Part shown: piece by piece, positions 855-62,660 of the stretch | Numbering within the stretch: the stretch's first letter is position 1 | How the letters are laid out: every line of letters begins with the position of its first letter | Source: Escherichia coli | GTDB taxonomy: Bacteria; Pseudomonadota; Gammaproteobacteria; Enterobacterales; Enterobacteriaceae | Strand: one strand, 5' to 3' | NCBI RefSeq assembly: GCF_001677475.2 | Contig: NZ_CP015229.1 | Length of the DNA stretch: 64,000 nt | The notes under the pieces: model-generated | Told to the model about the DNA's origin: nothing | What the model saw: only the letters and a program-made list of their open reading frames with translations | The model's database searches: none | Made by a program: the position numbers and the translations under genes

Positions 855-1921
855 CGGGAAAATTTCTGCAGCAAAGAGAAGTCGCGTGCGACCAGCATCA
901 GCAGGCCCATTAGCATGAGTCCGGGCACTAACCACAAACCAGGAATGAGAGGAATCGCGCCGTTAGCCACCAGCGTACGGCAGACGTCGCCGCCATAAAA
1001 AATGGCAATAAACAGCAACGTCAGTGGCAATAACGTTGAAAATCGCCCCTGCCGCGGTTTTACCCGACTTAATGAAATGGCCAGCAGCGCCATCAACAAT
1101 GCTGTCAGGCCACGGCTTTGTCGCCATTGCAGTTCGGCATGATCGGCTGGAAAGACGGAGCGCGCCAGCTCCGTGACCGATTTTGCTTTGCGTTTGACGT
1201 TAGGGCTTTGATCCAGCGGATTCAGATGTAATTGCAGATTACGGTAGATCTGTTCGTTGTCGTCACGCCCCTGATGATCGAGAAGGTAGGCGGTCCCGTT
1301 ATGCAACATAACGGTCGGTTTCTCGGGTGATGGGTCAACCACATCAACCGAACGGGCGCGGAAAATGCGGGTTCGATTGGCAGTAGAAGTATAAATCAGC
1401 GCGTCAGTCAGGCGATTATTATCCTGATCAACCGTCTGCGAAAGGATCATTCGTCCGTTATCGTTAGTGTTAAATTTCTTTGCCCGCAACTGGCGAACAT
1501 CCAACTCCGACTGCGACTGTTGCTCCAGTTGATAAATCTGCGCATAAGCCCACGGACGACCATACATCGACAGAAGGGTGACAAAAATACTTAGCGGTAT
1601 CGCCAAATTAAGAACGGCTTTGTACAAGCGTCCCGGACTGCCCCCCGCCGCAGAGATAGCGGTAATTTCCGAGTCGGTATACATCTGCCCTAGCGTCACG
1701 CCAACTGACACATACAGTCCAACAGGTAACAACATCTCCAGTGCAATCAGCACTTTGTAGAAAACGATATCCAGCACAACATCAAGTGCTAATGTCCCAT
1801 TTGCCGCTTCGGTCAGATAACGCTGTGCGGAGTAGCTGGCGAAAATAAAGATCAGAAAACCGACGATAATCAGCACCAGACGGCGCGTACCACGCATGAT
1901 GTAGTGTTCAACCAGCTTCAT
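851..1921 (-). CDS. LptF/YjgP-family permease paralog (356 aa)
   Basis: ORF track 851..1921. The N-terminal TM region and the GQMYTDSEITAISAAG motif resemble LptF (GKLYTESEITVMHACG), followed by a ~150-aa hydrophilic insert and C-terminal TM helices. Start may instead be Met9. Confidence 0.75.
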   Translation of the reverse strand: MKLVEHYIMRGTRRLVLIIVGFLIFIFASYSAQRYLTEAANGTLALDVVLDIVFYKVLIALEMLLPVGLYVSVGVTLGQMYTDSEITAISAAGGSPGRLYKAVLNLAIPLSIFVTLLSMYGRPWAYAQIYQLEQQSQSELDVRQLRAKKFNTNDNGRMILSQTVDQDNNRLTDALIYTSTANRTRIFRARSVDVVDPSPEKPTVMLHNGTAYLLDHQGRDDNEQIYRNLQLHLNPLDQSPNVKRKAKSVTELARSVFPADHAELQWRQSRGLTALLMALLAISLSRVKPRQGRFSTLLPLTLLFIAIFYGGDVCRTLVANGAIPLIPGLWLVPGLMLMGLLMLVARDFSLLQKFSR

Positions 1922-60467: not shown

Positions 60468-61241
60468 ATGTCAGTACCTCTCATTCTGACCATACTGGCG
60501 GGGGCAGCCACGTTTATTGGCGCGTTTCTCGGCGTTCTCGGGCAAAAACCCTCGAACCGCTTACTGGCGTTTTCGCTAGGATTTGCGGCGGGGATCATGT
60601 TGCTCATCTCATTAATGGAAATGCTTCCTGCCGCACTAGCAGCTGAAGGAATGTCGCCTGTGTTGGGTTATGGAATGTTTATCTTCGGTCTGCTTGGCTA
60701 TTTTGGCCTGGACCGCATGTTGCCACATGCGCATCCGCAGGATTTAATGCAAAAATCGGTGCAGCCGTTGCCAAAATCGATCAAGCGCACAGCCATTCTG
60801 CTCACTCTCGGCATCAGTCTGCATAACTTCCCGGAAGGGATTGCCACCTTTGTCACGGCGAGCAGCAACCTGGAGCTGGGCTTTGGCATCGCACTGGCCG
60901 TTGCGTTACACAATATTCCTGAAGGTCTGGCGGTTGCAGGCCCGGTTTACGCGGCAACGGGGTCTAAACGCACCGCGATTCTTTGGGCGGGGATTTCTGG
61001 ACTGGCAGAAATTCTTGGTGGTGTGCTGGCGTGGTTAATCCTCGGTAGCATGATTTCCCCGGTGGTCATGGCGGCAATCATGGCGGCGGTTGCAGGAATT
61101 ATGGTGGCGCTCTCGGTTGATGAATTAATGCCGCTCGCCAAAGAGATTGACCCTAATAATAACCCCAGCTATGGCGTACTATGTGGAATGTCAGTGATGG
61201 GATTCAGTTTAGTGCTGCTACAAACGGCGGGAATTGGTTAA
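60468..61241 (+). CDS. zupT: ZIP-family zinc/divalent-metal transporter (257 aa)
   Basis: [25 protein letters not shown]; start at internal Met of track ORF. Confidence 0.93.
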
Positions 61242-61298
61242 AAGCAACATCAGAAGTTGTCCAGCGCATGGACAACTTCTGCCAGCTTCACTAAAGCC

Positions 61299-61493
61299 TT
61301 ATTCTACCTTTTCGGCTGTCTCTTCTCTCGTACTGTTTAAGTATTTGTTCCGCGCTTCAAGCAGTGCGTCTCTGTCCTGGCGAAACGCCCGACAATAACG
61401 TTTCAAATGCAGGAAATAACCCACAACAACAAGAGCAATCAATACAATCCAGTACCAGGCGATAAACATCCTTTTACCCTTAATATTTAACAA
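61299..61493 (-). CDS. Candidate small single-TM membrane protein (56-64 aa)
   Basis: ORF with one hydrophobic helix (FIAWYWIVLIALVVVGYFL); own AT-rich upstream region; flanked by hairpins. Confidence 0.35.
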   Translation of the reverse strand: MLNIKGKRMFIAWYWIVLIALVVVGYFLHLKRYCRAFRQDRDALLEARNKYLNSTREETAEKVE

Positions 61494-61661
61494 TACTAAA
61501 CATTTAGCGCATAAATTTCACATATCCTTTTTCGGATATATTCATATGGTCGCATAATAACGGAACAATTATATGATTTTGATCATAATGAAAAAGAATG
61601 CCTGATATTAATGAAATTTTCTCATAGAAAGAGAAGCGGAATTAACATCTTGCATAGCAGG

Positions 61662-61700
61662 GAAAAATAAAAACCGAAGCCTGCTACAACTTCGGTTTCT
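61662..61700 (-). terminator. Rho-independent terminator of ribB
   Basis: aaaccgaag...cttcggttt stem followed by T-run on the minus strand. Confidence 0.65.
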
Positions 61701-61730
61701 TGATTAAGGCAGTAAATTAAGCAGCGGTTT

Positions 61731-62384
61731 TCAGCTGGCTTTACGCTCATGTGCCTGACGATATGCCACCAGGTCTTCAATAGTCACGAGCGCCATATTG
61801 TGTTTATTGGCAAACTCAATGCACTCTGGTGCACGCGCCATCGTGCCATCGTCATTAGTCAGCTCACACAGCACACCAGCCGGTTTAAAGCCTGCCAGCG
61901 TCATTAGATCAATAGTTGCCTCAGTATGACCGCCACGCGTCAGTACACCACCAGCCTGAGCGCGGAGTGGGAAAACGTGGCCCGGGCGATTCAGATCAGA
62001 AGGTTTTGCGCCATCGGCAATCGCTGCGCGAACGGTCGTAATACGGTCAGCGGCAGAAACACCGGTAGTCACACCTTCAGCCGCTTCAATGGTCACGGTA
62101 AAACCGGTGCCATAGGCGCTGGTGTTATTTTCTACCATCATTGGCAGATCGAGTTGTTTACGGCGATCTTCAGTAATGCACAGGCAAACAATACCGCTAC
62201 CGTGGCGAATGGTCAGCGCCATCTGCTCAACGGTCATGGTTTCTGCCGGGAAGATCATATCACCTTCGTTTTCACGGTCTTCATCATCAAGCACCATCAC
62301 ACCGCGTCCTTCACGCAGTGCAGCCAGTGCATTTTCAACACGTTCGAAAGGCGTACCAAAAGAGGAAAGTAGCGTCTGATTCAT
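61731..62384 (-). CDS. ribB: 3,4-dihydroxy-2-butanone-4-phosphate synthase (217 aa)
   Basis: [42 protein letters not shown]. Confidence 0.97.
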
Positions 62385-62439: not shown

Positions 62440-62660
62440 GGCGGCATATAGCCAAAATAACGTGAGCGGGTCCATGCCCGACAGAATCGTTACTCTCTCC
62501 CATCCGGACTCTAACCGTCGGCCCCGGAATTACACCGGATCTGCTGTCCTTTGAGTTCGCACCCAAAGCGCTCGCGGGCTTTCAACTGAGTTGATTTACC
62601 GCCGGTGGGGAATTTCGCCCCGCCCTGAGAATAAGCGGATTCACTATAACGCTAATGATT
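62440..62660 (-). ncRNA. FMN riboswitch (RFN element) in the ribB 5' leader
   Basis: Minus-strand sequence contains the conserved RFN core (...ggcgaaattccccaccggcggtaaatcaactcagttgaaagcccgcgagcgctttgggtgcgaactcaaaggacagcagatccggtgtaattccggggccgacggttagagtccggatgggagagagtaacga). Confidence 0.85.

Follow-up and report, generated by a model that had tools for sequence, protein, structure and literature searches.

What is encoded in the spacer between zupT and ribB of Escherichia coli? The question arose for one window (the whole 64,000-nucleotide stretch of E. coli DNA that was analyzed), for which an earlier note, made from the letters alone, had proposed a gene for a small single-TM protein in a gap of ~490 bp. 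The gap measures 489 bp, from the zupT stop at 61241 (+ strand) to the ribB stop at 61731 (- strand). It contains a minus-strand ORF at 61299..61493 that can be read as 64 codons from a TTG, beginning MLNIKGKRMFIAWYW, or as 56 codons from an ATG at 61469. The ORF at 61299..61469 (-) is yqiD (b4756), which is already annotated; the proposal was correct but is not new.

61299..61469, minus strand: yqiD coding sequence, 56 codons plus a TAA stop, translation MFIAWYWIVLIALVVVGYFLHLKRYCRAFRQDRDALLEARNKYLNSTREETAEKVE, RefSeq "protein YqiD"

The ORF is the annotated gene yqiD

The RefSeq coding sequence "yqiD: protein YqiD" maps exactly to 61299..61469 (-), by way of a 100%-identical record in which it occupies 1600-1770 (-). 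The remark in the earlier note that small membrane proteins often escape annotation does not hold for this gene, and a 2026 paper cites the E. coli gene as b4756. A megablast search with 61200..61760 found a match in 5418 of 5426 complete E. coli genomes, with yqiD as the feature lying under the match and a median copy number of one place per genome. The same segment is 100% identical to that of strain FDAARGOS_497, in which glgS comes directly after ubiK.

YqiD appears in VanOrsdel et al. 2018 (Proteomics; PMC6001520) as a 56-aa protein encoded in the zupT/ribB gap, at 3183381-3183551 of K-12, and the translation of 61299..61469 (-) is identical to the 56-aa sequence printed there. With a chromosomal SPA tag, the product was detected by immunoblot in cultures grown in rich medium, and YqiD is one of 13 among the newly identified proteins that a tetracycline ribosome-profiling screen also scored as positive, a group of which the authors state that most were abundant (PMC6001520). 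On this literature basis YqiD is synthesized, as a tagged protein, and both of the experiments that the earlier note had put forward, ribosome profiling and epitope tagging, have published positive outcomes. The literature search returned no function, partner, localization or phenotype for E. coli YqiD; other papers under the name "yqiD" concern an unrelated Bacillus subtilis gene (an ispA homolog) or a reviewer's slip for another protein. Since 2018 yqiD has had both an annotation and experimental support, so its recovery carries no weight as a discovery. The case illustrates that a real small-protein gene can be recognized from raw sequence.

Conservation and selection

Twenty-nine versions of the gene were compared, comprising 27 loci from a scan of one genome per species, the window itself, and a divergent E. 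coli allele. The 27 loci derive from Escherichia spp., many Citrobacter, S. enterica subsp. diarizonae and arizonae, Intestinirhabdus alba, and one Enterobacter sp. All 29 versions retain an intact ORF of 56-60 codons that starts at the same ATG, the range in length arising because the C-terminal tail varies. Within codons 1-42, variable sites number 20, 16, and 37 at codon positions 1, 2, and 3, respectively. Nei-Gojobori dN/dS values for this segment are 0.03-0.14 where dS is estimable, dS between genera being 1.5-2.5 and near saturation. From codon 43 to the end, dN/dS rises to about 0.4-0.8 (Nei-Gojobori), and the pooled pN/pS is 0.12 for codons 1-42 versus 0.67 for the remainder. The yqiD frame is under strong purifying selection, beyond what chance would produce, and the variable tail is under weaker constraint than codons 1-42. 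The codon-level check suggested at the outset thus bears out the gene. The two outcomes that the earlier note had named as fatal to its proposal, a frame that is not conserved and a missing translation signal, are both contradicted.

Sixteen positions are invariant among 19 relatives: M1, I3, W5, W7, Y18, H21, K23, R24, C26, A28, and R30, and also D32, R33, D34, A35, and L36. The constrained residues W5/W7 and the R30-L36 motif provide a usable lead on the function of YqiD.

An ORF of 56-64 codons is not improbable in a 489-bp gap, and no family model matches this one, so that a chance frame in an AT-rich spacer holding only terminators and regulatory DNA might be considered. Against this stand the kept frame, dN/dS values well under 1, a surplus of changes at third positions, and published detection of the protein (PMC6001520). 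A chance frame is accordingly given next to no credence, and yqiD is treated below as a protein-coding gene.

Translation start

The 56- and 64-codon forms, both left open by the earlier note, differ in their start codons and in the signals that precede them.

61477..61481, minus strand: Shine-Dalgarno sequence AAGGG, 7 nt 5' of the ATG, read from the sequence
61491..61493, minus strand: in-frame TTG of the 64-codon reading, start not conserved

AAGGG hardly varies across 19 aligned loci and can be seen in 28 of 29 Shine-Dalgarno regions. The TTG lies within an invariant TGTTAA motif, and an in-frame ATG or TTG is found at position -8 in 18 of 29 versions. These observations would be compatible with a true product of 64 residues initiated at the TTG at 61493 of the window, where the codon is in frame. 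Such a product would add MLNIKGKR to the N-terminus, and its three positive charges would flip the predicted topology to N-in. The other 11 versions, which include other E. coli and Salmonella, have no in-frame start at -8, owing to a 1-nt indel or an in-frame stop before the ATG. As the TTG is cut off from the ATG in these 11, the 56-aa form is the conserved product. A Shine-Dalgarno sequence is absent before the TTG, and RefSeq and PMC6001520 both use 56 aa. The longer product is therefore regarded as very improbable. Translation starts from the ATG at 61469 by way of AAGGG, in agreement with RefSeq and PMC6001520; the 56-codon part of the original range stands, while the 64-codon part does not.

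A separate transcription unit

The hairpins said to bracket the gene were both recovered by a terminator scan, in which 0.4 such sites are expected in shuffled sequence.

61251..61281, no strand assigned: hairpin between zupT and yqiD, 13 pairs, perfect, with the tail ATGTTGCTTT on the minus strand
61660..61700, minus strand: ribB intrinsic terminator, stem 61669..61700 of 13 pairs followed by ATTTTTCCCT, -16 kcal/mol

The first hairpin lies 17 nt 3' of the yqiD stop. Folded as RNA, its minus-strand form reaches -25 kcal/mol (z = -4.1) and its plus-strand form -22.8 kcal/mol (z = -4.8), the latter with no U-run after the stem. zupT and yqiD, which are convergent, share this hairpin; it is likely the yqiD terminator and possibly acts in both directions. 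The second splits ribB transcription from yqiD, which consequently needs a promoter of its own. yqiD is a separate transcription unit, lying between the ribB terminator and the hairpin shared with zupT. Conservation of the DNA upstream of the gene, and the use of fragments from it as promoter reporters (both described below), speak for this as well.

Two RNA elements were seen on the ribB side. In Rfam, the ribB 3' end and terminator (61662..61732, -) resemble STnc240, a candidate sRNA of Salmonella, at 29.1 bits (E = 0.087), below the gathering score of 55; this STnc240-like stretch may be a 3'-UTR-derived RNA of ribB. Located 5' of ribB is an FMN riboswitch (62488..62636, -), an ordinary full-length match of 120.9 bits (E = 3e-29) that is also present in RefSeq.

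Predicted structure and topology of YqiD

Three segments can be distinguished in the protein.

61410..61466, minus strand: TM helix, codons 2-20, single and hydrophobic, with the aromatic cluster W5-Y6-W7 at its outer end
61344..61409, minus strand: juxtamembrane segment, codons 21-42, basic, conserved, predicted cytoplasmic
61302..61343, minus strand: C-terminal tail, codons 43-56, acidic and variable

Residues 2-20 (FIAWYWIVLIALVVVGYFL) have a mean Kyte-Doolittle hydropathy of 2.43, as expected of the single-TM protein that had been proposed, and the 22 residues that follow the helix contain 7 K/R versus 3 D/E. AlphaFold2 places residues 3-55 in one helix with a mean pLDDT of 72.6 (80-86 over residues 1-20), a model that is moderately confident at most (pTM 0.35). 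By hydropathy and AlphaFold2, YqiD fits the size class of proteins of <~60 aa with one TM helix. No charge precedes the helix and 7 K/R come just after it, so by the positive-inside rule the C-terminus would lie in the cytoplasm. From these features we infer an N-out/C-in inner-membrane protein that spans the membrane through residues 2-20. The one-residue N-terminus would be periplasmic, and the C-terminal ~35 residues would be cytoplasmic.

Homologs

Searches of Pfam, NCBIfam, PHROGs, PADLOC, and PDB sequences gave no curated family above threshold. Matches to DUF2621 (20 bits versus a cutoff of 27.7), NF038143 (17.6 bits versus 50), and psaX (E = 2.2) were rejected because they are sub-threshold and driven by the hydrophobic helix. 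NCBI and UniRef name relatives in Citrobacter, Salmonella, and E. coli "DUF4051 domain-containing protein"; DUF4051 did not appear at E <= 1 for YqiD and 13 relatives in the Pfam-A copy searched, from which the model may be missing.

A word-indexed protein search identified 108 relatives, all short, in Escherichia, Citrobacter, and Salmonella. When 1.84 billion representatives were searched exhaustively with a profile, only 23 proteins were recovered, the clear matches all belonging to the same small enterobacterial family, and no larger protein was seen to carry the YqiD segment as a domain. In the more distant homologs, of 53-74 aa, the hydrophobic helix at the N-terminus is retained along with the motif [KR]R-x2-[KR]A-x-R-x-[DE]R-x-A, and H21 and C26 are absent or displaced in those numbered P0112-P0118. 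One further match, in the repeat protein P0123 (419 aa, E = 5e-4), covers 17 residues and was taken as chance.

Among the profile matches, P0121 is a zupT-yqiD fusion in a 125-aa ORF, seen in one contig only (Logan SRR31245077_25353, L031 1499-2027). It joins codons 1-72 of zupT in frame with codons 12 to the end of a yqiD-like gene, and the zupT C-terminus lies beyond on the opposite strand. Such a layout is compatible either with an inversion that involved both convergent genes or with a misassembly.

Genomic context and E. coli alleles

In all 27 genome loci, which span five genera, zupT is the immediate convergent neighbor of yqiD. It also adjoins the gene for most of the distant homologs (L032, L034, L035, L036, L038, L039, L042, and L043). 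The upstream neighbor varies, being ribB, a fimbrial operon, or assT-dsbL-dsbI. A distant yqiD-like gene, P0113 (53 aa; L040 3951-4112 and L041 4001-4162), adjoins assT-dsbL-dsbI, and in L040 also ygiC/ygiB, while L041 ends in an unidentified gene. Neither zupT nor ygiD was found next to P0113 in L040, the only context found in which the pairing with zupT is broken. As the organisms are all close relatives, linkage to zupT is weak evidence of a functional tie.

A second E. coli allele of yqiD occurs in 984 of the 5418 genomes with about 76% DNA identity (L002 1769-2905), and a fimbrial operon sits between this yqiD and ribB. With a dS of about 1.9, the two E. coli alleles are as far apart at synonymous sites as E. 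coli is from Salmonella. The tract of divergence opens within zupT near 60870, and homology ends at ~61588; the ZupT protein is identical in both (same accession). That the tract begins within zupT despite an identical ZupT suggests an imported recombination tract. Two such divergent alleles with different upstream DNA constitute a usable lead. A 2025 preprint used 230-bp reporter fragments named "yqiD-WT" and "yqiD-MT", whose primers match the upstream DNA of the two E. coli alleles, and listed yqiD among four genes with an expression effect consistent across its methods.

Two further strains are of note. In E. coli FCI23, a blood isolate (L003 3107-3905), IS1 lies right after zupT and a B2-type yqiD is cut to residues 28-56; the gene is thus dispensable in this clinical strain. 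In EAEC 042, orf3334 (CBG36162.1), a hypothetical gene of the "DUF4051 family", showed higher expression in an aar (AraC negative regulator) mutant, a response shared by only two other tested genes (PMC5570504). orf3334 is probably the yqiD orthologue.

Possible function

The explanation that best accounts for the data as a whole is that of a known gene, yqiD, forming its own unit, translated from the ATG with AAGGG, and encoding a single-helix inner-membrane protein, and we hold this to be highly probable. Charged or polar residues outside the membrane make up most of the invariant positions, which favors a specific contact over mere anchoring. A polar juxtamembrane helix, KRYCxAFRQDRDAL, would then be a docking surface for a larger inner-membrane protein, whose activity or stability YqiD might modulate through docking. 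By analogy with AcrZ, MgtS, MgrB, PmrR, and similar small proteins, such a role is given about even odds. Points against the explanation as a whole are that the papers found report no function or partner, that YqiD matches no curated family above threshold, that the pTM is 0.35, that H21 and C26 are not kept in the most distant homologs, and that the gene is cut by IS1 in one strain.

Position weakly suggests ZupT, the only partner candidate that it offers. YqiD might accordingly be an accessory or regulatory subunit of this zinc/metal importer, in which H21 and C26, together with a Cys20 in Citrobacter and Salmonella, could sense metal at the boundary between membrane and cytoplasm. The presence of zupT beside yqiD in all 27 loci and for most distant homologs, while the upstream neighbor varies, would be consistent with such a subunit, as would the invariance of H21 and C26 among the 19 close relatives. 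On the other hand, adjacency is expected from ordinary synteny in taxa that are all close relatives, and it is lost in the L040/L041 lineage, which keeps a yqiD-like gene with no zupT or ygiD adjacent. The two genes are convergent and so not co-transcribed, which also counts against such a subunit. The idea of metal binding is weakened by the absence of H21 and C26 from the distant homologs P0112-P0118, and no Zur-like motif was noticed by eye upstream of yqiD. A ZupT subunit is considered unlikely, and docking to a larger inner-membrane protein, as set out above, is the proposal preferred here.

Upstream region

The AT-richness that had been remarked on upstream of the ORF is confirmed by a G+C content of 29.2% for 61470..61661, versus 51.2% for the window.

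61470..61588, minus strand: conserved upstream region (5' UTR and/or promoter), ~120 nt before the yqiD ATG
61572..61587, no strand assigned: palindrome TATGATCAAAATCATA, also written TATGATCRAAATCATA, candidate operator with invariant arms

Identity between genera is 67-80% over the upstream ~120 nt, versus 45-64% at third codon positions. The palindrome, with the consensus TATGATC(A/G)AAATCATA, lies about 103-118 nt 5' of the yqiD ATG; across all 19 aligned loci, drawn from four genera, neither its ATGATC arm nor its ATCAT arm varies. A GATC lies within it, and the 64-kb window has a single occurrence versus 0.11 expected. The element can be read as TATGA-N6-TCATA or as ATGAT-N4-ATCAT, with a TGA-N6-TCA core as in operators of the CRP/FNR family. 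The consensus sites are TGTGA-N6-TCACA for CRP and TTGAT-N4-ATCAA for FNR. Judged by its letters, the palindrome resembles sites of this family and is a candidate only; its sequence was not found in the literature search. Constraint on the upstream ~120 nt, together with the invariant palindrome, supplies another usable lead.

A simple scan gave one promoter, TTAATA-18-TATGAT (61611..61582), which is no more than shuffled sequences give. Candidates seen by eye are TATAAT at 61568..61573 and, nearer the gene, GTGAAA-17-TAGTAT, with no basis for choosing among the three. A short hairpin, ATATCC-GAAAAA-GGATAT (61522..61539, -), lies in the candidate 5' UTR, and a few of its changes between genera look compensatory. 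Of its alignment cells 76% are paired, and two of six pairs have double changes, with 66% in a control slid by +2. RNAalifold did not predict the hairpin, and a conserved 5' UTR structure is not claimed, given this result and pair counts near those of the slide control. In the window RNA, part of the yqiD Shine-Dalgarno sequence is covered by a second hairpin, rich in AU.

A more elaborate scheme would have YqiD modulate ZupT or another inner-membrane transporter under CRP/FNR-type control at the palindrome, with the E. coli alleles differing in that control. As a combined reading this is offered as a long shot.

Comparison with known systems

YqiD as encoded here agrees with that of K-12 in its 56-aa sequence, zupT/ribB position, strand arrangement, and RefSeq annotation, with no differences at the protein level.

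The type I toxins Hok, Ldr, TisB, Ibs, and ShoB resemble YqiD in being short and having one hydrophobic helix. YqiD could on these grounds be a membrane-damaging hydrophobic peptide of toxin type, silenced by an antisense RNA, and the long conserved upstream region could form hairpins that include the Shine-Dalgarno sequence. YqiD differs from these toxins in that it is detected in rich-medium cultures (PMC6001520) and is single-copy in nearly all genomes (5418 of 5426 E. coli, median one place). The multi-copy or patchy distribution of type I systems was not observed, and Rfam contained no antitoxin or antisense RNA family match at E <= 1. Purifying selection across genera and a fixed syntenic site in five genera are likewise unlike typical type I toxins, and the conserved part of YqiD is its polar cytoplasmic segment. 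A toxin is thus a most improbable identity for YqiD, and a modulator of a larger membrane protein remains the preferred reading.

AcrZ, MgtS, MgrB, PmrR, and KdpF are single-pass small regulators of the inner membrane that bind and modulate larger membrane proteins; they are grouped by function and do not form one sequence family. AcrZ (YbhT), for instance, has 49 aa, partners the AcrB pump, and is regulated together with it. They differ from YqiD in sequence, the family and PDB-sequence searches having detected no similarity. They share with YqiD the size class, a single N-terminal TM helix, a C-terminus predicted to be cytoplasmic, a gene that stands alone, and a distribution confined to enterobacteria.
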